A DNA stretch of 64,000 nt from Vicinamibacterales bacterium (GCA_963825295.1 CAWGSZ010000001.1:293298-357297), one strand, 5' to 3'. Counted from the stretch's first letter, positions 8,413-63,427 are shown. The notes: a model not told the origin generated them from the sequence alone. Program-made: numbers and translations.

Positions 8413-8442
8413 TTGACACAGGCCTCCACGGGAGCGTAGTGT
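8413..8442 (+). promoter_or_regulatory. possible sigma-70-type promoter of the blaI operon
   Basis: TTGACA (8413-8418), an 18-nt spacer, then TAGTGT (8437-8442), about 25 nt upstream of the blaI start. Confidence 0.3.
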
Positions 8443-8469
8443 GGGCAAGTCTTAATTTATTAGGTGAAC

Positions 8470-8847
8470 ATGCCTCGTCCTACGTCCCCAACGATGACCG
8501 ACGGCGAACTGCGTCTGATGCGCGTGCTTTGGGAAAGAGGTCAGGCGACGGTCGGGGAGGTGGTGGAGGCCCTCACCACAGGACCGAAGCCTGCCTACAA
8601 CACGGTGCTCACGCTGCTGCGCATCATGGAGAAGAAGGGGTATGTCTCGCACCGGAAGGACGGGCGCGCCTTCATTTTCCTGCCCGAAGTCGGCCGCGCC
8701 GCCGCGAGCCGCAGCGCGCTGCAGACGCTGGTCAATCGTTTCTTCGAAGGGTCGACGCGCCTGCTGATGCTGAATCTGCTCGAAGACGAGCAGCTCGCTC
8801 CCGATGTCGTGAAGCGGTTGAAGGAGCGGATCGAGGAGGCCTCATGA
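8470..8847 (+). CDS. blaI: BlaI/MecI/CopY family transcriptional repressor
   Basis: Winged-helix pattern LRLMRVLWERGQATVGEVVEAL..YNTVLTLLRIMEKKGYV. ATG at 8470 follows AGGTG (the ORF track opens at GTG 8464). The stop overlaps the next ATG (ATGA). Confidence 0.85.
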   Translation: MPRPTSPTMTDGELRLMRVLWERGQATVGEVVEALTTGPKPAYNTVLTLLRIMEKKGYVSHRKDGRAFIFLPEVGRAAASRSALQTLVNRFFEGSTRLLMLNLLEDEQLAPDVVKRLKERIEEAS

Positions 8848-10247
8848 CGGGGTGGCTGCTCACGTGGCTCTGGCAGGGGGTCGTCCTGACGCTGAGCGTC
8901 GCCATCCTCTTGAAGTCGAGGCGCTTCAATGCCGCGACGCGCCACCTGGTGTGGTGGGCGGCCCTCGTCGCCCTCGCCTGGCTGGGCTACCAATCATCCC
9001 CGTACGGGGGTCAGACCCCCGTACCTGTACGGGGGTCTGACCCCAATGGCATGAGTTTCGCGCCGGAGCCGCTGCTCCAGGTTCACCAAATCTCCCCGTT
9101 CGTTGTTTCGATCCTTCTTGGCGTCTGGGCCGCGGTTGCCCTCGTAAAACTGGTTCGTCTCGTGCCGAGCCTGCACGCGGTGTATGCGTTACGCGATCTG
9201 TGCCGGCCGTTTCCCGCTGCCATCGAATCGCGGCTTCCGCTCTGGCTCGACGCGAACGGGCGCGGGCGACGCCGGGCAGAGTTGATGCTCTGCGACGAGC
9301 TCGCGGGCGCGACGGTGCTCGGCTTCCAGCGTCCGTGCATCGCCCTTCCAACCTCCCTCGTCCAGGCGTTGAGAGTCGAGGACCTGGATCAGATCCTTCT
9401 GCACGAGCAGGCACACGTCGAGCGGCGTGACGATTGGGCGCGATTGGCGCAGGCGCTGTTGCAGGCGGTGCTGTGGATTCACCCGGTGGTCCCGTTCATC
9501 GGCCGCGCCTTGAACCGCGAAAGCGAGATGGCGTGCGACGAATCGGTCATCGCGCGAACCGGCCTTCCAAAGGCATACGCCCGGTGCCTCCTGATCGCCG
9601 CCGAAGTGCGCGGGCGCATCAGGCTCGCGCCGGCTGTCGTGCCGGCATTGTTCGGAAGCCAGCACGATCTCGTGCGCCGCGTCGATCGTTTGCTCCATAC
9701 GAAGGAGAGCACACGGCGCGGCGTCTCGTGGCTCGTGGTCGTTGGTGCCGCGTGCGCGATTAGCGCGATCTCGGTACGGCTGAACACCCTGCCGCTGGTT
9801 GGCGAGTACGTGGACATGGTCCTGCCGCTGGTCGCCTCGCCAGCCGCGCGCCTCGTTGCCGGATTGAAACCCGTCGCACCGGCATCATCAGTCGCGATTC
9901 GGTCCGTCGAATCAATTCACGCGAGCGCCGCGCCGCCGCGTCTCGCCTCGGTGAGCCCAAACGAACCTCACGAACTCCACGAACCTAACGAACCTAACGA
10001 ACCCAACAAACCTTACGAACCCAACGAACCCGGCGGACCTTCAGAACTTCGAGGGGTCATGTCCTCCCGCGCCTTCGAAGGTGCGTACCATCAGAATCCG
10101 ACAGCCGTCGAGTCCGATGGATCGAGCGGCTGGCGGGCGGCGGCCACTCCCGGCGTGGAGATCGCCAGCGCGGCGCGCAAGACCAGCGTGGGCATTGCCG
10201 GCGCGGTCACCCGCGCGAGTGTGTCGCTGGCGAAGAGCTTCAGATGA
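8844..10247 (+). CDS. blaR1: BlaR1-like M56 family membrane metalloprotease / signal transducer
   Basis: ATG 8844 overlaps the blaI stop. N-terminal TM helices and the M56 motif HEQAHVERRD are present. No penicillin-binding sensor domain is recognisable. The C-terminal half is low-complexity and carries repeat insertions. Confidence 0.75.
   Translation: MTGWLLTWLWQGVVLTLSVAILLKSRRFNAATRHLVWWAALVALAWLGYQSSPYGGQTPVPVRGSDPNGMSFAPEPLLQVHQISPFVVSILLGVWAAVALVKLVRLVPSLHAVYALRDLCRPFPAAIESRLPLWLDANGRGRRRAELMLCDELAGATVLGFQRPCIALPTSLVQALRVEDLDQILLHEQAHVERRDDWARLAQALLQAVLWIHPVVPFIGRALNRESEMACDESVIARTGLPKAYARCLLIAAEVRGRIRLAPAVVPALFGSQHDLVRRVDRLLHTKESTRRGVSWLVVVGAACAISAISVRLNTLPLVGEYVDMVLPLVASPAARLVAGLKPVAPASSVAIRSVESIHASAAPPRLASVSPNEPHELHEPNEPNEPNKPYEPNEPGGPSELRGVMSSRAFEGAYHQNPTAVESDGSSGWRAAATPGVEIASAARKTSVGIAGAVTRASVSLAKSFR
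8998..9044. repeat. double palindromic element inside the blaR1 coding sequence
   Basis: GGGGTCAGACCCCCGTAC (9007-9024) and GTACGGGGGTCTGACCCC (9027-9044) form a perfect 18-bp inverted repeat with a 2-nt spacer. It encodes ..PYGGQTPVPVRGSDP.. Confidence 0.8.
9961..10032. repeat. 8 x 9-nt tandem array (ACGAACCNN) in frame in the blaR1 3' region
   Basis: ACGAACCTC ACGAACTCC ACGAACCTA ACGAACCTA ACGAACCCA ACAAACCTT ACGAACCCA ACGAACCCG. It encodes NEPHELHEPNEPNEPNKPYEPNEP. Confidence 0.85.
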
Positions 10248-17031: not shown

Positions 17032-18502
17032 ATGACTCCAGAACAGCGACGACGCGCGCGTGATTTGTTCGAGGCGGCGGTCGAGCAGGAGCCCGCGGAC
17101 CTGTATCGCTGGCTCGACGAGGCGGCCGCCGATGACTCGCTGGTGCGTGCGGAGGTTCGGTCGCTGCTCGACCATCATTCGCGCGCGGGGTCGTTTCTCG
17201 CGCAGCCCGTGGCCGAAGCCGTTCCTCAGCTCCTCGAGGAGGATCGCGCGATCGCGCCGGGTACGGAGCTCGGTCCCTACACGGTCGTCGGCGAAATCGG
17301 GCGGGGCGGCATGGGACGCGTGTATCTGGCGTCGGACGGCCGGCTCGGCCGCACGGATTGCGCTGAAGGCGCTGCCGCCCGAGCTGACGCGCGATGCCTC
17401 GCATCGCGATCGGCTGCGCCGGGAAGCGCGCGCGGCCGCGCTCCTCACCCATCCGGGGATCTGCACGGTGTTTGCGCTCGAGGAGCTCGAGGGCGAGCTG
17501 TACATCGCCACCGAGTTCGTCGAAGGGCACACGATGCGCGAAGAGATCGGCACCACGCGACCGTCGCTCGAGACGATCCTGGCCACGGCGCGCGATCTCG
17601 CCTCGGCACTGGCGGGCGCCCACGGCAAAGGCGTGACGCATCGCGACCTCAAGCCGGAAAACGTGATGCGCACGGCGGACGGCCGCATCAAGATCCTGGA
17701 TTTCGGCCTCGCGCGCGTCGAGACCGTGCCCGGCGGCATTGCGGCGACGCTGACCGCGTCGCTCCCGGGCGCCATCGCCGGCACTCCCGCATACATGTCT
17801 CCCGAACAGATCGAAGGGCGGACGGCCGGCCCCGGCGCCGACGTCTTTGCGTTCGGGGTGCTGATGTACGAGTGGATCTCGGGCCGTCATCCATTCCTGG
17901 CCGGCTCGCCGCTGGCCACGCTGGCACGCGTGCTCGACAGCAACCCGGACCCGCTGACGACGGTGGCAACCGTCCCGGCGTGGCTGTCGAATGTCATCGA
18001 CCGGTGTCTGCGGAAGTCGGTCACCGATCGGTACGCGTCTGCGTCCGAGCTGCTGTACGCGCTGGACCATCCCACGATCGTCGAGCCGCCGACGGTGCGC
18101 AGCAGCACGTGGTGGCGCACGCATCAGGTCGTGGCGATCGGTCTTTACATCGTTGCGATGGCCCACGCATGGCAGATCAAGGAGTGGTTGCGCAACCCGA
18201 CATCGCTCTGGGTGTTCGTCGTGATGGGCATTGCCGCCTCGGTGGGTGGCATCGTTCGCGGCCATCTCGTCTTTACCGACGCGATGAACCGGTCGCACCT
18301 GCCAGGCGAACTTTCCAGGACCAACCGGGTGCGGCTCTTCACCGATGGGCTGCTGGCCACGCTGTTGAGCGTCGATGCGCTGCTGCTGGCATGGCAGTGG
18401 CCGCTGACCGCGGTGCTGACGCTCGCGCTCGCCGCCGGCATCATGCTGGCCGCGGTGCTGATGGAACCGGCCACGACTACTGCGTTACTGGATCCCCAAT
18501 AG
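17032..18502 (+). pseudogene. Ser/Thr protein kinase with a C-terminal multi-TM region, frame broken near 17356
   Basis: The N-terminal part sits in the frame of ORF 16345..18510 (..GEIGRGGMGRVYLASDGRLGRT). The rest sits in ORF 17060..18502 (IALKALP..HRDLKPENV..DFGLAR). One extra G at about 17356 separates them. An alternative start is 16945. Confidence 0.75.
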
Positions 18503-19076
18503 TGCGTTAGGTGCGACGCTTGCGCGCGGGCCCGGGCCAGCGGTTCCACTCGGGATCCGGCCGCTCCTTTACGGAGTTCCGGAAGCGACTCGTCGCGACG
18601 AACGCCCGCTTTTCTAGATTCAGGGCGGAAGCGATCTCTTCGTCCTCACGTAGCCATTGTCGAGCGCCTCGCCCAGTTCGTCCTCAACCTCATTGAGCGA
18701 TGTTAGAGAGGTTGCAAGAAAGTTCGCAATGTCGCGGTGAGTTCTTCGGCCAAATCCCTCCGCAATCATCCTCCGCGCTGACGCCGCTGCATCCCTGAGC
18801 TGGTCGCGCAGGTCCCGGTCTTGACGGAATACGGGCTTTGAGCTGATTCGAAACACCTCCCTTTGAAGTGCACGAGCGAGCTTCCAGCACGTCAATTCCG
18901 AGAAATGTCGCACGCCCATGCGCGACCGAACTGCACGCGCGATGCCGCCCTCCTGTGGGAATTTTCAGGGAAGTCGTGGCCCTTGCGATATGGTGTGGCA
19001 CTTCTTGCTCAACCCGTTGGCATTTTCCACACGATCGCCCGCACCCAACGCACCCGTCGCACCCAACGCACCTATA
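18501..19076. mobile_element. hypothesised IVS-like cassette: inverted GGTGCG nonamer arms enclosing a four-helix-bundle gene
   Basis: Left arm AGTGCGTTAGGTGCGACG (18501-18518) matches the reverse complement of 19055-19072 (GGTGCGTTGGGTGCGACG) at 16 of 18 positions. The right arm has 4 nonamers (19041-19076). The interior gene has lower GC3. Confidence 0.4.
18620..18919 (-). CDS. four-helix-bundle protein (23S rRNA intervening-sequence protein / Avd-like family)
   Basis: Family pattern ..CWKLARAL..LRDQLRDAAASARRMIAEGFGRRTHRDIANFLATSLTSLNEVEDEL.. Confidence 0.75.
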   Translation of the reverse strand: MGVRHFSELTCWKLARALQREVFRISSKPVFRQDRDLRDQLRDAAASARRMIAEGFGRRTHRDIANFLATSLTSLNEVEDELGEALDNGYVRTKRSLPP

Positions 19077-37424: not shown

Positions 37425-38333
37425 ATGATGGCCACCCGTTCGAAATGGCAGCAGCTCCCGACAGAGGCAGTGAACCCGCGCAGCCGCGGCATCGACGCGT
37501 TGTCGTCAGGTGAAATGGTCGACGTGATGGTTGTCGATGGTCGTGCCGTTCTGGCCGCCGTGCGTCACGAGAAGACACGCATCGCCCGGGGCGCCGACAT
37601 CATCGCCGCTGCCATGCGCGATGGAGGCCGATTGATCTTCGTCGGGGCCGGCACCAGCGGCCGTCTCGGCGTGCTCGAAGCGGCGGAGTTGCCGCCCACC
37701 TTCGGCATCGAACCGTCGTCGGCCACGGCGATCATGGCTGGAGGTGCGGCCGCCGTGCACCGCGCGAAAGAAGGCGTGGAAGACGACCACCGCGAAGGCG
37801 CACGCGCGATGCGCGCGCTTCGACCCCGCCGCAAGGACGTGGTGATCGGCATCTCGGCGAGCGGCATCACGCCGTTCGTACACGGCGCTGTCGAGCGTGG
37901 GCGTGCCGCGGGCGCGCACGTCATCGGCATCACGTGCGATCCGCGTTCTGCGCTCAGGAAACTCGCCGAGGTCACCATTGTGCTGAACGTGGGGCCCGAG
38001 GTCATCGCGGGGTCCACGCGGCTGAAGGCCGGGACGGCCACCAAGGTCGTGCTGAACATGCTGACGACGGCGGCTATGGTGCGGGCAGGGAAGACCTATG
38101 GGAATTTGATGGTGGACGTGAAGTCGAATTCGGAAAAGCTGCGCGATCGCGCGCGCCGCATCGTGGCGGGCGTGACCGGCCTGGAGTACGAGGGGGCCGA
38201 TGCATGGCTCCGGCGATCGGGATGGAACGTCAAGGCCGCCATTCTCATGCAGCAGCGGGGCATGACGCGCCGGGCCGCGCTGTTACGTCTGCGTGCCGAG
38301 CCTCGACTTCGAAAGCTTCTCGGCGGACGGTAA
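37425..38333 (+). CDS. murQ: N-acetylmuramic acid 6-phosphate etherase
   Basis: SIS domain with FVGAGTSGRLGVLEAAELPPTFG and ISASGITPFV..GSTRLKAGTATK. Confidence 0.85.
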   Translation: MMATRSKWQQLPTEAVNPRSRGIDALSSGEMVDVMVVDGRAVLAAVRHEKTRIARGADIIAAAMRDGGRLIFVGAGTSGRLGVLEAAELPPTFGIEPSSATAIMAGGAAAVHRAKEGVEDDHREGARAMRALRPRRKDVVIGISASGITPFVHGAVERGRAAGAHVIGITCDPRSALRKLAEVTIVLNVGPEVIAGSTRLKAGTATKVVLNMLTTAAMVRAGKTYGNLMVDVKSNSEKLRDRARRIVAGVTGLEYEGADAWLRRSGWNVKAAILMQQRGMTRRAALLRLRAEPRLRKLLGGR

Positions 38334-39038
38334 ATCCAGAATCACCTCGACGTTCGGATGCAGTTGCAGCAGAGATGCCGGCAGCGCGGTCGAGATCTGT
38401 CCGTTCACCATGGCCGCGACCGCGCGCGCTTTCGGCCGGCCCATGGCGACGAGCACGATCGCGCGAGCGTCCAGCATCGTTCCCACGCCCATCGTCAACG
38501 CCTCGCGTGGCACTCTGTCGAGCCGCCCGCCGAACAGGGCCGCATTCGCACGGCGGGTTTCGATCGCCAGTGCGGTGCGGTGGCTGCGGGCCCGCAGGAC
38601 CCGCGCCGGCTCGTTGAAGCCGATGTGTCCGTTGCGGCCGATGCCGACGAGCAGGAGGTCGATCCCGCCGAGCAACGCGATCTCGCGCTCGAACCGTTCG
38701 CACTCGGCCTGGTGGTCGGTGGCGGTGCCATTGAGAAAATGCACGTGGCGGGCAGGGAGATTGATGCGCGAGAAAAGGTGCTTGTGCATGAACGCGCAGA
38801 AGCTTCGCTTGTCGGTTGCCTGCAGGCCGACGAATTCGTCGATGTTGAAGGTGTGCGCCTGCGAAAAATCGGCGGTGCCGGCGTCGTGCAGCGCGGCCAG
38901 CGCGTCGTAGATGGCGAGCGACGTGCGACCGGTCGGAAGGCCGAACACCGAGGCGTGCTTGCGCGCGAGCTGGGCCGCGACAGCGGTTGCGGCGGCACGG
39001 CCGGCTTCCTCAGCCGATCGAAACACGCGAACGTTCAT
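38283..39038 (-). CDS. nagB: glucosamine-6-phosphate deaminase
   Basis: GLPTGRTSLAIY, FNIDEFVGL, GIGRNGHIGFNEP. Confidence 0.85.
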   Translation of the reverse strand: MNVRVFRSAEEAGRAAATAVAAQLARKHASVFGLPTGRTSLAIYDALAALHDAGTADFSQAHTFNIDEFVGLQATDKRSFCAFMHKHLFSRINLPARHVHFLNGTATDHQAECERFEREIALLGGIDLLLVGIGRNGHIGFNEPARVLRARSHRTALAIETRRANAALFGGRLDRVPREALTMGVGTMLDARAIVLVAMGRPKARAVAAMVNGQISTALPASLLQLHPNVEVILDLPSAEKLSKSRLGTQT

Positions 39039-39982
39039 GTGAGGTTGGGACGATAGACCGGCAGCCGCGCGTCGCCGCGCAACTCGGCGAGCGCGAGGCG
39101 TACCGCGCCGAGCGCCGGCGGAACATCGAGGCGCATCACCGTGCTCCGGCTGGCGAGAGACGGAAGCTGAAGGTGCAGCTGTTCACCGAGCCAGGGCACC
39201 GCCTGGAACATGCCGCCCGACAGCACGAAGGTGAACGACTTGCCGGTCAGTTCGAGGCGCGCCATGACGGCCGACGCCGCCGTGATGAGCTCGTCGGCCG
39301 CACTTTTCAGAATGCCCGTCGCGACCGTGTCGCCTTCGTCGCGCGCCTGCTGCACGTACTTCGCCACGGCCGCAATCGAGCGAGGGCTCAACTCCTCGTG
39401 ATACACCTGATAGATCAGTTCCGAGGCACGCTCGACGCCGAAGTGGTTGAGAAGCCGCGGTGTCAGGCTCGTGATGCGTCCGCGCCCGTCTGCATGACGC
39501 ACGACGGCGCGCAGCGCGAGACGGCCAATCCAGTAGCCGCTGCCTTCGTCACCCAGCACGTACCCCCAGCCGCCCGCGCGCGCCGATTCGCCCCGGTCGT
39601 TCTGCCCGTAGGCAATGGATCCGGTACCCGAGATGATGACGATGCCGGGATTGTCGCCGACGCCGGCCCGCAGCGCGATCAACGCGTCGTTGACGACGAG
39701 AATCCTGGCTTTGTAGCCGATGCGGCTCATGATGCTGCGCACGATGGTCTCGTCCGACGGGCGATCGACGCCCGCGATACCGAGGCAGATGGCCGATGGC
39801 ACGATGCCCGTTCCCTCGAGCGTCTTCTCCATCACCGAGTGCACCACCTTCTCCAGCGCCAGCTCGCCGACGCCCTGCAGATTCGCGCCCTCTTCGCGAC
39901 CTTCCGCGATGACGCGCGCGTCCTGATCTGCCAGCAGGCACGTGGTTTTCGAGCCGCCGACGTCGATGCCAAGAACGTACAT
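39035..39982 (-). CDS. N-acetylglucosamine kinase (BadF/BadG/BcrA/BcrD ATPase family)
   Basis: LGIDVGGSKT, ISGTGSIAYG, GGWGYVLGDEGSGYWIG. The stop overlaps the nagB start. Confidence 0.75.
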   Translation of the reverse strand: MYVLGIDVGGSKTTCLLADQDARVIAEGREEGANLQGVGELALEKVVHSVMEKTLEGTGIVPSAICLGIAGVDRPSDETIVRSIMSRIGYKARILVVNDALIALRAGVGDNPGIVIISGTGSIAYGQNDRGESARAGGWGYVLGDEGSGYWIGRLALRAVVRHADGRGRITSLTPRLLNHFGVERASELIYQVYHEELSPRSIAAVAKYVQQARDEGDTVATGILKSAADELITAASAVMARLELTGKSFTFVLSGGMFQAVPWLGEQLHLQLPSLASRSTVMRLDVPPALGAVRLALAELRGDARLPVYRPNLT

Positions 39983-40000
39983 TCTGGATATATTACGTGG

Positions 40001-41254
40001 ATGATCGTCCTCTCCGGCGCCGATCTCGTTCTACCAGGCGGTGTGCAATCGCGTGCCACGCTGGTCATTGATGGGGAACGGATAGCCGATGTGAGCAGCG
40101 CGACGGCCCCGCCGGCGTCTTCCACGCCGCTCGACGGACACATCATCGTGCCCGGGTTCATCGATGTGCACGTCCATGGCGTCGACGGTATTGACGCGCT
40201 CGATGGGTCCGATGCCACGGCCGCCATTGCCAGCCGGCTGCCGAAGTTTGGCGTCACGGCGTTCTGCCCGACCACGGTCGCATGCGGACCTGCCCGCCTG
40301 CGCGACGTGCTCGAGAGCGTGGCCAGACTGCGTGGCGCAATCGATGGTGCGGCTCGCGTGCTGCCCGCCCATCTGGAAAGCAACTTCATCAATCCCGACT
40401 ACAGAGGCGCGCAGCCGGTTGAGTGTCTGCGCGCACCTCTGGGTGCGTTGGGTGCGAGGGGTGCGTTGGGTGCGAGGGGTGCGTTAGGTGCGTCGGGTGC
40501 GACAGGTGCGATGGAGGATTTCGATGCCGCCGACATTGTTGCCGAGATCGATCGTGCCGGTAGCGCCGTCGGCATTGTAACGCTGGCGCCCGAGCTCGAC
40601 GGCGCGCTCGACCTCATCCGGCATCTCGTGTCGAAGGGACGGCGGGTTTCGCTCGGGCACTCGGGCGCTGACATGGAGCAGGGACGCGCCGCAATCGAGG
40701 CCGGTGCGACTCAGGCGACGCACCTCTTCAACAGGATGCCGCCGTTCGGCCATCGCCAGCCGGGGCTGGTGGGCGCGATCCTGTCGAGCGAACGTGTGGC
40801 CGCCGAAGTGATTTGCGATGGTGTGCACGTGCACCGCGAGGTCGTGCGCATGGCGGTCTCCACCAAGGGAACGGCCAGGATGATGGCGATCACCGACGGG
40901 GTCGCCGTCGCCGGCATGCCGGACGGCTCGACGGCACTGCTTGGTGGACGGCAGATTCGCGTCGACAAGTCCGCCGCGTATCTCGAAGACGGCACGCTCG
41001 CGGGAAGCGTGACCACGATGGACCGCGTATTCAGATTTCTCGTCCGCGACGTCGGGCTTTCACTCGTCGACGCGGCGCATCTGTGCTCCACCACGCCTGC
41101 CGCGGAACTGAACCTCACGGATCTCGGCGCCATCACCAAAGGTGCCATCGCCGATCTCGTCGTCCTCGATCGCAACTTTCATGTCAGGCAGACCTACGTC
41201 GCCGGCCGGCTGGTCTACGACGGCGAAAAAGGCTCCCGGAGCCTTTTTGAGTAA
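40001..41254 (+). CDS. nagA: N-acetylglucosamine-6-phosphate deacetylase with an in-frame repeat insertion
   Basis: ATG at 40001. GFIDVHVHG, HLESNFINP, LGHSGA, THLFNRMP, ITDG. It contains the 72-nt GGTGCG array. Confidence 0.85.
   Translation: MIVLSGADLVLPGGVQSRATLVIDGERIADVSSATAPPASSTPLDGHIIVPGFIDVHVHGVDGIDALDGSDATAAIASRLPKFGVTAFCPTTVACGPARLRDVLESVARLRGAIDGAARVLPAHLESNFINPDYRGAQPVECLRAPLGALGARGALGARGALGASGATGAMEDFDAADIVAEIDRAGSAVGIVTLAPELDGALDLIRHLVSKGRRVSLGHSGADMEQGRAAIEAGATQATHLFNRMPPFGHRQPGLVGAILSSERVAAEVICDGVHVHREVVRMAVSTKGTARMMAITDGVAVAGMPDGSTALLGGRQIRVDKSAAYLEDGTLAGSVTTMDRVFRFLVRDVGLSLVDAAHLCSTTPAAELNLTDLGAITKGAIADLVVLDRNFHVRQTYVAGRLVYDGEKGSRSLFE
40441..40512. repeat. 8 x 9-nt tandem array (GGGTGCGNN) in frame inside nagA
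   Basis: GGGTGCGTT GGGTGCGAG GGGTGCGTT GGGTGCGAG GGGTGCGTT AGGTGCGTC GGGTGCGAC AGGTGCGAT. It encodes GALGARGALGARGALGASGATGAM. Confidence 0.9.
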
Positions 41255-41263
41255 GATCGCCGG

Positions 41264-42514
41264 ATGGATCTCGAGCGAAAACTACAGGTTTATGCGGAGC
41301 TCGCGGTAAGGGTTGCGCTGAACGTGCAGCCCGGGCAGCGGGTGATGATTATCGGACCGCTCGCCAACGGCGGCGCGTCCCTTGAATCAGCTCCACTGGC
41401 CAGGCAGATCGCGGCGGCGGCCTACCGCGCCGGATCGCCGCTGGTCGAGACGATTTACGGCGACGAGGCGCAGCAGTCGCTTCGATTCAAGCACGCGCCG
41501 CGCGAATCGTTCGGCAGCTTTTCGTCGTGGCTGCCCGCCGCGCTCTCCGAGCACGTGCGAGCCGGGCACGCCGTCCTCTCCATCAGCGCGAACGATCCGG
41601 ATCTCCTGCAGGGGGAGTCGCCCGATCTCGTCAGCACGCTGCTTCAGTCGACGGCCCGGGACATGCGGCCGTTTCGCGAGCAGGTCTCGCGCAACGACAC
41701 GAACTGGGCGGTCGTTGCGGCCGCGAGCGCCGGGTGGGCGGCGAAGATCTTTCCCGGAATCCCCACGAGCGCGGCGGTGTCGAAGTTGTGGGACGCCATC
41801 GCCCGCATGTGCCGGCTCGACACGCCGGATCCTCTCGCCGCCTGGGAGGCGCACCTCGGCAACCTGGCAGCGCGCGCCGAGTATCTGAACAACAAGCGCT
41901 ATTCGGCGCTCAAATACACAGGGCCTGGCACCGATCTCACGCTCGGCCTTCCCGAGGGGCATGTCTGGGTCAGCGGGCGAAGCGTGAGCCGCGGCGGCAT
42001 TCCGTTCACGGCGAACCTGCCGACCGAAGAGGTCTTCACGATTGCCCATAAGGATCGCGTCGACGGCACCGTGCGCGCCTCGAAACCGCTCAGCTACGGC
42101 AGCACGCTCATCGACGGCTTCAGCGTGACGTTCGAGCGCGGCCGCATCGTGACGATGACCGCGGAGAAGAACGCCGACACGCTGCAGCGGCTGCTCGATA
42201 CCGACGAAGGGGCACGGCGGCTCGGCGAAGTCGCGCTCGTCCCCAACAGCTCGCCCATCTCGCAGTCGGGCCTGCTCTACTACAACACCCTCTTCGACGA
42301 GAACGCGGCCAGCCACGTCGCGCTCGGCAACGCCTACAAGTTCACGTTGAAGCGTGGCAACGACATGAGCGATGAGGAATTCGAGCAGGCGGGCGGCAAC
42401 CGCAGCGCCGTGCATGTCGACTTCATGATCGGATCGGGCGCGCTCGACGTCGACGGGGTGCTGCCGGGTGGTTCGACCGAGCCATTAATGCGGAACGGGG
42501 AGTGGACGAAGTAG
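41264..42514 (+). CDS. M29 family aminopeptidase (AmpS/PepS-like)
   Basis: LQVYAELAVRVALNVQPGQ.., NLPTEEVFT, VALVPNSSPIS.., VHVDFMIG. Confidence 0.8.
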   Translation: MDLERKLQVYAELAVRVALNVQPGQRVMIIGPLANGGASLESAPLARQIAAAAYRAGSPLVETIYGDEAQQSLRFKHAPRESFGSFSSWLPAALSEHVRAGHAVLSISANDPDLLQGESPDLVSTLLQSTARDMRPFREQVSRNDTNWAVVAAASAGWAAKIFPGIPTSAAVSKLWDAIARMCRLDTPDPLAAWEAHLGNLAARAEYLNNKRYSALKYTGPGTDLTLGLPEGHVWVSGRSVSRGGIPFTANLPTEEVFTIAHKDRVDGTVRASKPLSYGSTLIDGFSVTFERGRIVTMTAEKNADTLQRLLDTDEGARRLGEVALVPNSSPISQSGLLYYNTLFDENAASHVALGNAYKFTLKRGNDMSDEEFEQAGGNRSAVHVDFMIGSGALDVDGVLPGGSTEPLMRNGEWTK

Positions 42515-46112: not shown

Positions 46113-47851
46113 TGGTGGGCTTCGTACGTAGGCCGGGTCCTGCAGGACCCGGCGATCGGCGGGTCGACAGTGCAAGATCCGCTGCATGGCGGGTCTACAA
46201 AGCAAGACCCGCCCTACTCGTGGTGGCTCTCGCAGCGGTGGCGTCCGGCATCCTCTACGGCCAGGCGCGCAGCGCACCCGACTGGACGACGAGCGGGTTC
46301 GATGCGCAGCGATCGTCGTGGGTGCGCGCGGACCCGTACATTTCGATTCCGAATCTGACGAAGTTCCAGTTCATCTGGAAACTGAAGGTCGACAACGAGT
46401 CGCGGTTCGGGAACTCGCTGACCGCTCCCGTCGCGCTCGGCAACCTGATGACGTTTCGCGGATTCAAGTCGCTCGTCTTCGTCGGCGGCAGTTCCAACAA
46501 CGTCTACGCCATCGACTACGACTTCGGCACCATTTTCTGGCGGACCCATCACAACTACGCGGCCGGCGCCCGCGAGTTTTCCGGATCGCCCGCGTGTCCG
46601 GGCGGCATGACGATGCCGCTGACGCGCGCGACGCCGCTGGTTCCGACGGCGCAGCTGGCTTTCTTCGGGTTCGCGCGCCCGCCTCGTCCGGCCAAGGGGG
46701 ACATCGGCGAGCCTGGAAAAGGCGCACCTCAACTGGCCGAGATCGCGGCCCGCCTGGCGGCTCGCGGCAACAGCGGACGCGGAGCTGATACGCCGGCGCC
46801 CGCTCCACCGGCGCGCGGCGCCGCGCCTAACGCACCTCTCGCACCCAACGCATCCACCTCCGCGCCTACTTCGCAGACCGCTACGGCGGACAAGCCCGTC
46901 GCACCCAGTTCGCGGGTCGTGCGTGCAACCAACGCCGTTTTCAGCGTGGCCGCCGACGGCTTGTTGCGGGGACTCATTCCCGATACGGGCGATCTCGCGC
47001 TGGCACCGGCACGGTTTCTTCCGGCGAACGCGACAGCGACCGGGCTCATCTGGACCGAGGGCTTTGTTTATGCCGCCACGACAAATACATGCGGCGGCAC
47101 GTCGGAAGCCGTGTGGGCCATGGATGTTGCGTCGGACGCCAGGCCGGTGGTTTCGTGGGATACCGGTGGCGCGCCAGTGGCGGGAATCGCCGTCGGTCCC
47201 GACGGTACTGTGTACGCCGCCACCGGAAGCGGCACGTCTCAATACGCCAGCTCGATCGTGGCATTGGACGGCGCGACGCTGACCGTGCGCGACTGGGTCA
47301 CGCGCGAGTCCGGGTTTACGTCGGCGCCGGTCGTGTTCACCGAAGGGCAGAAGTCGTACGTGACGGCCACGTCGGACGGCCGGCTCCATGTCTTCGATGC
47401 CGCCTCGCTGGGCGGCGCCACTCACCGCGCGCCGCTGGCCATGACGGCCGATGCCGGGCTGCGCTTCGCCCCTGACGGTCTCGCGACGTGGCGCGACGAG
47501 TCGGGCACGCGCTGGATTCTTGCCGCCCTCGGCGATGCGATCGGCGGCTTCAAGGTCGTCGACAAGGGCGGCACACCCTCGATCGAGCGCGCGTGGACAT
47601 CGCGGACGATGGCATCTCCGCGCGCGCCGATCATCGTCAACGGCGTCGTGTTCGCGCTCGCCGGCGGCAACGCGAATGCGAACGCGACGCTCTACGCGCT
47701 CGATCCTTCGACAGGCAAGGATCTCTGGACCAGCGGAAGTACGATTACCGGGGTTGCCAGCGCCGGGCTGTCTGCCGGAACCGGCCAGGTGTACGTCGTG
47801 ACGTCGGACAACACGGTATGGTCGTTCGGCATTCCGCTCGCCATAAATTAG
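46109..47851 (+). CDS. PQQ-like beta-propeller repeat protein with a low-complexity insert
   Basis: ATG 46109 overlaps the upstream stop (ATGA). Blades such as NNVYAIDYDFGTIFW and ATLYALDPSTGKDLW. There is an Ala/Pro-rich insert including a CGCACC nonamer array. Confidence 0.7.
   Translation: MMVGFVRRPGPAGPGDRRVDSARSAAWRVYKARPALLVVALAAVASGILYGQARSAPDWTTSGFDAQRSSWVRADPYISIPNLTKFQFIWKLKVDNESRFGNSLTAPVALGNLMTFRGFKSLVFVGGSSNNVYAIDYDFGTIFWRTHHNYAAGAREFSGSPACPGGMTMPLTRATPLVPTAQLAFFGFARPPRPAKGDIGEPGKGAPQLAEIAARLAARGNSGRGADTPAPAPPARGAAPNAPLAPNASTSAPTSQTATADKPVAPSSRVVRATNAVFSVAADGLLRGLIPDTGDLALAPARFLPANATATGLIWTEGFVYAATTNTCGGTSEAVWAMDVASDARPVVSWDTGGAPVAGIAVGPDGTVYAATGSGTSQYASSIVALDGATLTVRDWVTRESGFTSAPVVFTEGQKSYVTATSDGRLHVFDAASLGGATHRAPLAMTADAGLRFAPDGLATWRDESGTRWILAALGDAIGGFKVVDKGGTPSIERAWTSRTMASPRAPIIVNGVVFALAGGNANANATLYALDPSTGKDLWTSGSTITGVASAGLSAGTGQVYVVTSDNTVWSFGIPLAIN
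46822..46857. repeat. 4 x 9-nt array (CGCACCNNN, complement orientation) in frame in a propeller gene
   Basis: CGCGCCTAA CGCACCTCT CGCACCCAA CGCATCCAC. It encodes APNAPLAPNAST. Confidence 0.75.
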
Positions 47852-47931
47852 GTGCGAGGGGTGCGAGGGGTGCGAGGGGTGCGTCAGGTGCGTCAGGTGC
47901 GAGGGGTGCGATGGGTGCGCTAGGTGCGGCC
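47851..47931. repeat. 9 x 9-nt tandem array (GGTGCGNNN) filling an intergenic gap
   Basis: GGTGCGAGG x3, GGTGCGTCA x2, GGTGCGAGG, GGTGCGATG, GGTGCGCTA, GGTGCGGCC. It starts at the last base of the TAG stop (47849-47851) and ends 3 nt before ATG 47935. Confidence 0.9.
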
Positions 47932-62834: not shown

Positions 62835-63427
62835 GGCTCAGGGCTTAGGGCTCAGAGCTTAGGGTTTTGCACCTCGAGATGGCGACGCCTGCGCCGTCTT
62901 GATCGCCGCGACGATCATGGCCCGTAGCTCGCCGGCCTCCTTCAGTTCCCAATCGACTTCCTCTGCTTTGACCTTGCCGAGCTTTACCGCGACGCGCAGC
63001 CAGTAGCGGCTCTCGCGCGATTCCTTTCGAGAGATCGCCATCTTTGCGATGAAGTCGGGCTTGGTCTGACCATCCTGCGCTTCCTCTGCGTTGGCCCCGA
63101 CCGAAGCACCGCACCGCATCAACTCCGACGCGATATGACGCGCAGCAGGTCCGCGATCCCACAGTCTTTCTGATAGTTGCATCACTCGACAACCGAACTC
63201 GAACGCCCGCGTGCAGATAGTCGACTCGCTCATAGCGTTCGTGTGTCTTCAAATACGCCGCCATTTCTTGACTGCATAGATTCCGGAGGTTTTTCTTCCG
63301 GTTGGCAGTCTTTGCCACGTCAAGTCGACACCGACGTTGGAGAATGTTTGAAGCTGGATCACGATTAACCCTCAACCCTTAAGCCCTCAGCCCTCAGCCC
63401 TCAGCCCTTAGCCCTTAGCCCTTTCAG
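62821..63427. mobile_element. hypothesised IVS-like cassette: inverted GGCTNAG heptamer arms enclosing a four-helix-bundle gene
   Basis: Left arm 62821-62869 has 7 units of GGCTNAG. Right arm 63365-63427 has 9 units of CTNAGCC (the reverse complement). A single antisense ORF lies between them. The right arm abuts a truncated gene. Confidence 0.4.
62859..63233 (-). CDS. four-helix-bundle protein (23S rRNA intervening-sequence protein / Avd-like family)
   Basis: ..FEFGCRVMQLSERL..ELMRCGASVGANAEEAQDGQTKPDFIAKMAISRKESRESRYWLRV.. The TAA stop lies in the last units of the left array. Confidence 0.75.
   Translation of the reverse strand: MSESTICTRAFEFGCRVMQLSERLWDRGPAARHIASELMRCGASVGANAEEAQDGQTKPDFIAKMAISRKESRESRYWLRVAVKLGKVKAEEVDWELKEAGELRAMIVAAIKTAQASPSRGAKP

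Follow-up and report, generated by a model that had tools for sequence, protein, structure and literature searches.

An in-frame GGTGCG nonamer array in nagA of a Vicinamibacterales bacterium: a probable coding minisatellite of a genus-specific dispersed repeat

Long simple sequence repeats (LSSRs), with units of 5–11 nt (Mrazek et al. 2007), form tandem arrays in numbers well beyond chance at many loci of the same genome and, in the parts of the summary in PMC4679880 on which we draw, have in-gene units that are multiples of three, a sporadic distribution among lineages and slippage as their presumed driver. Other repeat systems are relevant here. Rickettsia palindromic elements (RPEs; PMC10969869) are roughly 150-bp, single-copy palindromes that resemble MITEs (miniature transposable elements with inverted repeats) and encode a conserved peptide; intervening sequences of 23S rRNA, as in Coxiella, carry an S23p/PF05635 open reading frame (ORF; PMC4990558); and phase-variable contingency loci hold a slippage-prone tandem repeat inside a coding sequence (PMC11868660). 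Here, we describe an array of eight nine-nucleotide units with a GGTGCG core that lies in frame in nagA, the gene for N-acetylglucosamine-6-phosphate deacetylase, of a soil acidobacterium (genome of 6.14 Mb, 64% GC), which the names of its close homologues assign to the order Vicinamibacterales (Acidobacteriota). The locus lies in a stretch of 64,000 nt (the window; CAWGSZ010000001.1:293298-357297). We consider the nagA segment, with a probability of about 0.75, to be an old, slippage-prone coding minisatellite of a dispersed repeat that is specific to the genus, tolerated in a permissive loop of the enzyme.

The GGTGCG array in nagA and its repeat family

The 72-nt array consists of eight GGTGCGNNN units, read in frame as GALGARGALGARGALGASGATGAM (residues 148–171 of full-length NagA), between ..RGAQPVECLRAPL and EDFDAADIVAEIDRAG. 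A first-pass annotation, made from the sequence alone, had quoted these flanks correctly and had recognized the eight-unit, in-frame array, although one base off (at 40441–40512 instead of 40442–40513). The spacer that follows each GGT GCG is, in order, TTG, AGG, TTG, AGG, TTA, TCG, ACA and ATG. Tandem Repeats Finder reported the array at 40441–40511 with a period of 9 (7.9 copies) and also with a period of 18 (3.4 copies, 93% matches). The alternation of TTG and AGG spacers gives the first four units an 18-nt higher-order repeat, and this longer period indicates a recent block duplication in the array. The unit, no longer than 11 nt, is repeated head to tail over a length greater than expected by chance, and the window has 19 matches to two consecutive units, GGTGCGNNNGGTGCG, where shuffles predict 0.06.

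The codons of the array depart sharply from those of the genome. All eight Gly codons are GGT, which makes up 10.2% of Gly codons genome-wide (P about 1e-8), rare codons predominate in the spacers (TTG, 7.5%; AGG, 5.5%; ACA, 5.7%; TTA, 0.4%), and none of the 24 codons ends in C, compared with 45.5% across the rest of nagA. The same unit builds 71 arrays in the genome, of 3–17 units each and about equally on both strands, in which the fixed GGTGCG core is followed by a degenerate W-B-R spacer: A or T at the first position, C, T or G at the second and A or G at the third. This rule holds in all arrays, and spacer composition is alike inside and outside genes. Because its Gly codons are GGT only, its spacers are mostly rare codons, no codon ends in C and the spacer rule is that of the whole family, the nagA array is read as a DNA-level repeat that follows repeat rules instead of codon usage. 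The first-pass annotation was right that the unit is shared with the intergenic array and the arms of the hairpin cassette listed in Table 1, both of which obey the same spacer rule. Adenine mutagenesis of the kind seen in diversity-generating retroelements (DGRs) was rejected as the source of the spacers, as A hardly ever stands at position 2 and position 3 is restricted to A or G.

A three-unit pattern matched 172 times in the genome (0 matches for its reversed control). Of 25 genomes of the genus, 21 have it (0 to 558 matches per genome), and of two genomes of the sister genus, none; the repeat family is genus-specific. The intergenic arrays often open with xTA directly followed by GGTGCG, and their first unit then overlaps the upstream gene's TAG stop (for example at 47849–47851 of the window), and an A-rich AAxTA is common on their 5' side.

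Four nucleotides upstream of the nagA array lies GCGCACC, an inverted copy of the unit core. The first-pass annotation had pointed to its complementarity to the first unit; the motif is indeed present, one base from where it had been placed, but it is missing from orthologues L002–L005 and, taken together with the array, folds no better than shuffled sequence (z = 0.31 as RNA and 0.14 as DNA). Across the genome, CGCACC stands upstream of 3 of the 71 arrays (0.47 expected, P = 0.012), a weak enrichment. With neither conservation nor more than this enrichment behind it, GCGCACC was rejected as a partner arm of the array and is probably incidental. The array also holds one canonical G-quadruplex (G4) motif on the sense strand; such motifs occur in 8 of the 71 arrays and the minimum-energy fold is the same when quadruplexes are allowed, and the G4 was dropped as a general property of the arrays. 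These observations bear on the proposal that the array regulates nagA as RNA or DNA, whether through mRNA structure, an RNase III or other processing site, a protein-binding array or a quadruplex. The long hairpins that the family forms elsewhere (in the cassette at 18501–19076), the inverted core and the G4 motif would suit such a role. Given the fold statistics, the unconserved upstream complement, the lack of any Rfam match over 39800–41400 at E values up to 1 and the free variation of unit number and presence among orthologues, we regard it as very improbable.

The host ORF is a bona fide nagA. Its product scored 254.9 bits against TIGR00221, the NagA equivalog (cut-off 225.65), and matched all solved NagA structures (best Protein Data Bank entry 2VHL, 2.8e-56), its start, MIVLSGADL, agrees with the homologue consensus, and the metal and catalytic residues are intact, with H53, H55, H120, E122, H237 and D295 invariant and H216 nearly so (at least 90%) among 63 homologues. 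Next to nagA and divergent from it lie a gene for a NagB-type glucosamine-6-phosphate isomerase (38283–39038; PF01182) and one for a BadF/BadG-type ATPase (39035–39982; PF01869), a candidate N-acetylglucosamine kinase. Features are collected in Table 1.

Table 1. Features of the nagA locus and the window, and other genes of the genome that carry arrays in frame (window coordinates, except for the E2 acyltransferase locus)
Feature	Position	Strand	Description and basis
nagA, N-acetylglucosamine-6-phosphate deacetylase	40001–41254	+	417 aa plus stop; TIGR00221, 2VHL match, AlphaFold2 model
Eight tandem GGTGCG-NNN units, (Gly-Ala-x)8	40442–40513	+	Sequence, Tandem Repeats Finder, pattern search
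GCGCACC, inverted copy of unit core	40431–40437	+	4 nt 5' of array; codons R-A-P
ESNFINPDYRGAQP codons, beta3–alpha3 active-site loop (ESNF..GAQP)	40376–40417	+	Alignment to 2VHL and 6FV3
EDFDAADIVAEIDRAG, start of helix alpha3	40514–40561	+	Homology to solved NagA resumes; predicted helix, model residues 172–185
Amino-sugar genes divergent from nagA	38283–39982	-	Pfam PF01182, PF01869
Intergenic GGTGCG array, 9 units	47851–47931	+	Begins on TAG stop of upstream propeller gene
GGTGCG hairpin cassette	18501–19076	.	Inverted arms 18501–18518 and 19040–19072 around PF05635 gene
E2 acyltransferase	G000:C2:149927-150043 (L036)		13 units, Ala-Pro-x, in lipoyl-to-E3-binding-domain linker
HerA-like ATPase			17 units; Pfam
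LigD			Array in ligase to Prim-Pol linker; Pfam
PQQ dehydrogenase			Two arrays, inverted; Pfam
UvrD			Two arrays; Pfam
AlkZ-like glycosylase; HrpB; DEAD-box helicase; S13 DD-carboxypeptidase; PEP carboxylase (PEPC); DnaE			In-frame array; Pfam
GT4 glycosyltransferase; XerC/D-type recombinase; TonB-type outer-membrane protein; Mfd			In-frame array; Pfam

Place of the array in the NagA fold

To place the segment in the enzyme, the protein was aligned with solved NagA structures and modeled with AlphaFold2 on 63 homologues (query P0001, in which the array occupies residues 144–167). The alignment with Bacillus subtilis NagA (2VHL) breaks at query residue 141 and resumes at 181, leaving 39 residues (142–180) against 11 (2VHL 156–166), and that with Mycobacterium smegmatis NagA (6FV3) restarts at the last array residue (..AM, then EDFD). 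The first-pass claim that the segment is an insertion relative to other NagA enzymes was therefore upheld against both solved structures. The model, with a mean predicted local distance difference test (pLDDT) score of 84.6, a predicted TM score (pTM) of 0.87 and a TM score of 0.88 to 2VHL, contains a sole long stretch with pLDDT below 50, residues 145–166, to which no secondary structure is assigned. On the alignments and the model, the array is a clean insertion, placed between the active-site beta3 loop on one side and helix alpha3 on the other, and NagA is otherwise predicted to be a normal enzyme with its fold left intact.

The active-site loop ESNF..GAQP ends 8 residues before the array. 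Its counterpart in M. smegmatis NagA, which is described as a dimer, spans Glu-122 to Pro-136 and is a flexible loop able to occlude the active site (PMC6016474). Because the insertion point lies 8 residues past the equivalent of this occluding loop, the array sits on the catalytic face of the barrel and is not remote from it; the structural check that the first-pass annotation had proposed bore out a low-confidence loop insertion. A collagen-like Gly-X-Y domain was rejected as an identity for the segment, with only eight triplets, no Pro, pLDDT below 50, no predicted structure and a dimeric enzyme.

History of the nagA site and of array-bearing loops across the genus

The nagA site is highly variable. 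In 121 homologues with identities of 63% or more, the stretch from CLRxP to (D/E)Fxxx(D)I spans 4 to 52 residues, and 49 of them hold 2–11 Gly-Ala-x units there; across the genus and metagenome homologues, 0–12 units occupy the one nagA codon position, and the DNA-level comparison confirmed that the GGT GCG NNN arrays of the genus share it. There are 12 units in G025 (73% NagA identity), seven units, a hairpin element and one further unit in G041 (identity not recorded), one degenerate unit, two copies of the hairpin element and two units in G079 (94%), and no array in G103 and G006 (63–64%). On a loop-masked tree, the array is gained or lost at least 25 times, and the second, hairpin element (peptide G-L-P/S-R-R-S...A-K-A-G/D-A) at least 22 times. 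Because congeners hold GGTGCG arrays of variable content at the same nagA codon position, the array is old and genus-wide, with fast internal turnover, and is not a fresh insertion in this genome.

This history revises the first-pass account, in which an intergenic-type repeat had colonized a housekeeping ORF. The unit is the same and the frame is kept, but the repeat is not specifically intergenic, about a quarter of the arrays being in genes, and a recent colonization in this genome is contradicted by the units held at the site to NagA identities as low as 63–73% and by the number of changes on the tree. The comparison of orthologues that it had suggested showed insertion presence and unit number to vary; a shared segment constant in length and sequence, which would have refuted the account, is not there. 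In the order's other families GGTGCG arrays are lacking, yet an enlarged, unrelated low-complexity segment stands here, sometimes with other repeats. Phase variation is not indicated: every orthologous nagA variant is in frame and, because the 9-nt unit is three codons long, the array has no on/off role.

The in-gene arrays of the genome were counted from ORFs that cross an array and have coding signal on both sides, followed by Pfam assignment; the census rests on ORF, codon and Pfam evidence. At least 19 of the 71 arrays lie in frame, spread over 16 genes (nagA and those in Table 1), where they are placed inside or between Pfam domains. Forward arrays are always read as Gly-Ala-x (GAx) and reverse arrays as Ala-Pro-x (APx), with the exception of Mfd (His-Pro-Thr), so that 17 of 18 counted arrays use one of these two frames (P about 1e-7 at a chance of 1/3). 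Because almost only these frames are used while Val-Arg-x and Cys-x-x, equally open, were not seen among the counted in-gene arrays, the restriction is the mark of a purifying filter on what a protein can bear. The interdomain linkers of E2 subunits of 2-oxoacid dehydrogenases are normally rich in Ala and Pro, and the E2 linker built of GGTGCG units is a possible case of the repeat put to use.

The E2 linker, which supplies the Ala-Pro composition that such enzymes need, is also among the observations that favor selection of the Gly-Ala-x stretch as protein, either as a flexible lid or hinge that extends the beta3–alpha3 loop or as a spacer at the dimer interface, with the repeat as raw material. 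In the same direction point the position of the array directly after the invariant C138-L-R140 and the equivalent of the M. smegmatis occluding loop, the enlargement of the segment in all members of the order, and a depletion of ATA (Ile) spacers in in-gene arrays (1 of 101, compared with 19 of 197; P = 0.003). Such a role is difficult to reconcile with a segment length that ranges from 4 to 52 residues, with a sequence so unconstrained in close relatives that it may be GAx, the hairpin-element peptide, Ser runs or unique, with orthologues that are 91–94% identical yet have entirely different loops, and with a model that gives the array no structure; we judge it improbable.

Loops in four other genes, each traced across congeners, behave as the nagA loop does. 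Across the genus, the HerA-like loop contains forward arrays, reverse (APx) arrays or both side by side, many of them interrupted by the hairpin element. In L058, a HerA-like gene of G124, forward GGTGCA units pass directly into reverse GCACCC units (..GGT GCA CCC ACT GCA CCC..), the junction forming an in-frame hairpin translated as GATGAGGAPTAPNAP. The XerC/D-like loop contains GGTGCG nonamers in some species, among them the one analyzed here, and in others GGGCAGA heptamers in multiples of three or GAGTCCAGG nonamers (the last in L088 and L094); three to four copies of the heptamer read GQRAEGRGQ (L078, L082, L083, L084, L086, L087 and L090). For the AlkZ-like and S13 genes, the site is empty in more distant congeners and is then a Gly-rich turn, and no target-site duplication was seen when filled and empty sites of these two genes were compared; one AlkZ-like orthologue (L126) has a single unit and no gain in length.

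The hairpin element, here termed B, is a GC-rich sequence of about 45 nt, GGCYTGTCCGCCGWAGCG..GCGCGAAGGCGGATGCG, with the peptide GL[PS]RRS..AKA[GD]A, a predicted fold energy of -20 to -23 kcal/mol and a length that keeps the 9-nt phase. Its 5' half occurs in 48 copies, 15 of which stand directly after a GGTGCG-like unit (P about 1e-19), an adjacency that explains the presence of B inside arrays of the nagA, HerA-like, S13, AlkZ-like, PEPC and DnaE genes. The element is translated in frame in several housekeeping genes, and one copy sits in a GGTTCG array; copies are found, for example, at G000:C9:1014087, C8:24105 and C6:266366 and in orthologue loci L002, L004, L052–L055, L100–L103 and L128–L130. 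A third dispersed element, ..LRPERG..PPSE(S/R)ERGWGP(A)ST.., occurs in frame in nagA and HerA-like loops of other species (L015, nagA, G039; L068, HerA-like, G130; protein P0039).

One copy of the family flanks a gene for a PF05635 protein (23S rRNA intervening-sequence protein, Avd/S23p-like), a four-helix bundle of a kind for which no enzymatic activity is known. All 11 PF05635 genes in the genome are flanked by inverted arrays, each with its own 7–9-nt unit, and only one of them, in the cassette at 18501–19076 (gene at 18638–18898, minus strand, about 21 kb upstream of nagA), has GGTGCG arms. The units of the others include AGGGATT, AGCTATC, AGGGCTT, CGTTGGGTT, ATGGCAA, AAAGTAA and AGGGATCT, at loci such as C9:1761502, C2:684815, C1:356207 (window 62910–63221) and C7:143074. 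In G006 and G103, the two members of the genus whose nagA loop lacks an array, a cassette-like inverted GGTGCG pair, about 520 bp apart, lies right after the nagA stop (G006:C211:6308-6908 and G103:C168:7705-8350). Elsewhere in the window, a different nonamer, AACGAACCT, is present in 7.9 copies at 9960–10030, translated in frame (PNEPxEP..) within the C-terminal region of a BlaR1/M56-type peptidase (ORF 8439–10247, plus strand).

Together, these data are consistent with the following course of events for a coding minisatellite. The array would have been established in the ancestral lineage of the genus, in a disordered stretch that is peculiar to the lineage and separates the beta3 active-site loop from helix alpha3, and would have been inherited vertically since, with blocks of 9 or 18 nt gained and lost through replication slippage or unequal recombination and, in some lineages, with the nagA array split by the B element. 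As each unit spans three codons, gain or loss of copies never disturbs the frame; selection would keep only the mild frames, Gly-Ala-x forward or Ala-Pro-x reverse, in loops or linkers, and a mild frame in a permissive location would let the array persist as a floppy, probably near-neutral loop.

Several points weigh against this course. Pure slippage does not explain the single GGTGCG core shared by all 71 arrays, nor does it explain why a given loop holds one repeat family or orientation in one species and another in its sister species. Both would suit an active, unit-specific system that spreads the arrays and the B hairpin, possibly by means of the PF05635 protein, with the nagA array as one of its solo arms or as a product of homing. 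Fresh copies would preferentially be directed to existing arrays, low-complexity DNA or Gly-rich turns, and the loops would become self-reinforcing sinks. The inverted arrays around every PF05635 gene, one with GGTGCG arms 21 kb from nagA, the in-phase position of B after GGTGCG-like units, and the forward and reverse units adjacent in frame in L058 could all be read in this way, and such a system would act as a generator of repeat-driven loop diversity, remodeling loops of housekeeping enzymes genus-wide, and would give a function to PF05635, a widespread family of unknown role. The nagA array itself, however, is not a cassette of the PF05635 type, with no inverted partner (no CGCACC array) within 6 kb; only 6 of the 71 arrays have an inverted partner within 2.5 kb, filled and empty sites do not differ by a target-site duplication, and no recent insertion was caught, every in-gene site examined being old and shared. 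Spread by such a system is thus an unlikely origin for the nagA array.

The remaining points concern the nagA loop and the assembly. With the array 8 residues beyond the counterpart of a loop that gates the active site in mycobacterial NagA, catalysis or substrate access may be affected, and as all Vicinamibacterales have extra low-complexity sequence here, some loop length may be selected. In dnaE (L042; G000:C9:632277-632385, minus strand), a unit of 10 nt (GGTGCGATC-A-GGTGCG) that separates two 6-unit arrays splits the gene into two frames, and the downstream frame continues with GAx units, the B hairpin peptide and the OB/C-terminal domain. Either sequencing has introduced an indel into the repeat or an essential gene is truly frameshifted, and the 1-nt break shows that the assembly is not error-free in such repeats. 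This frame break is one of several in the assembly, the exact unit count in nagA rests on that one assembly, and the exact full-length NagA protein was not found in a public collection of 15 billion proteins, which could be taken to mean that the nagA array or its length is an assembly artefact. The nagA frame is intact, though, independent assemblies (L003, L004) carry GGT GCG NNN arrays at the exact nagA codon position, and dozens of metagenome proteins have GAx runs at the same site; an artefact is scarcely credible.

The family amounts to a natural experiment, clean and well controlled, on where core enzymes tolerate low-complexity insertion and to what extent. Annotators should not mistake such segments for domains, contamination or misassembly, and to protein engineers the arrays point out permissive insertion sites.

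Comparison with described repeat systems

Searches of the literature for nonamer or tandem repeats in Acidobacteria or Vicinamibacter found nothing relevant, and Vicinamibacterales did not turn up in the literature searched on LSSRs. Of the described systems, phase-variable contingency loci (PMC11868660) resemble the nagA array in placing a slippage-prone tandem repeat inside a coding sequence, but the nagA array keeps its frame at any copy number and lies in a housekeeping enzyme, not a surface antigen. The rRNA intervening sequences with an S23p/PF05635 ORF (PMC4990558) recall the cassette, where inverted GGTGCG arms bracket a PF05635 gene; by comparison, the nagA array is single and direct, has neither partner arm nor ORF, and lies in a protein gene. 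RPEs (PMC10969869) share with the GGTGCG family the occurrence of a dispersed repeat in frame, and compatibly with the fold, in many unrelated metabolic and housekeeping genes. They are of fixed length and fold as a hairpin, unlike the nagA array, which is non-palindromic, directly tandem and variable in length; the 45-nt B hairpin of the orthologues, which does fold, is the closer analogue. As flexible low-complexity sequence, (Gly-Ala-x)n and (Ala-Pro-x)n are comparable to the Ala-Pro linkers of E2 subunits and to bacterial collagen-like Gly-X-Y. To our knowledge no linker role is known in NagA, unlike in E2.

The closest match is with LSSRs and coding variable-number tandem repeats (VNTRs), with which the family shares every trait outlined above from PMC4679880: arrays at many loci of one genome, a unit that is a multiple of three in genes, a presumed origin by slippage and a sporadic distribution, to which the difference in copy number between relatives at nagA can be added. 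Compared with the LSSRs described in those parts of the summary, the GGTGCG family combines an invariant 6-mer core with a degenerate 3-mer spacer in place of a uniform unit, occupies loops that are shared genus-wide and by several repeat families, and has a link to PF05635 hairpin cassettes. Seemingly unreported are the core-plus-spacer unit, the strict GAx/APx frames, the B hairpin in phase with the units and the hot spots shared genus-wide. Nevertheless, the nagA array belongs to a known class, that of the coding long simple sequence repeats, and is not a new system.

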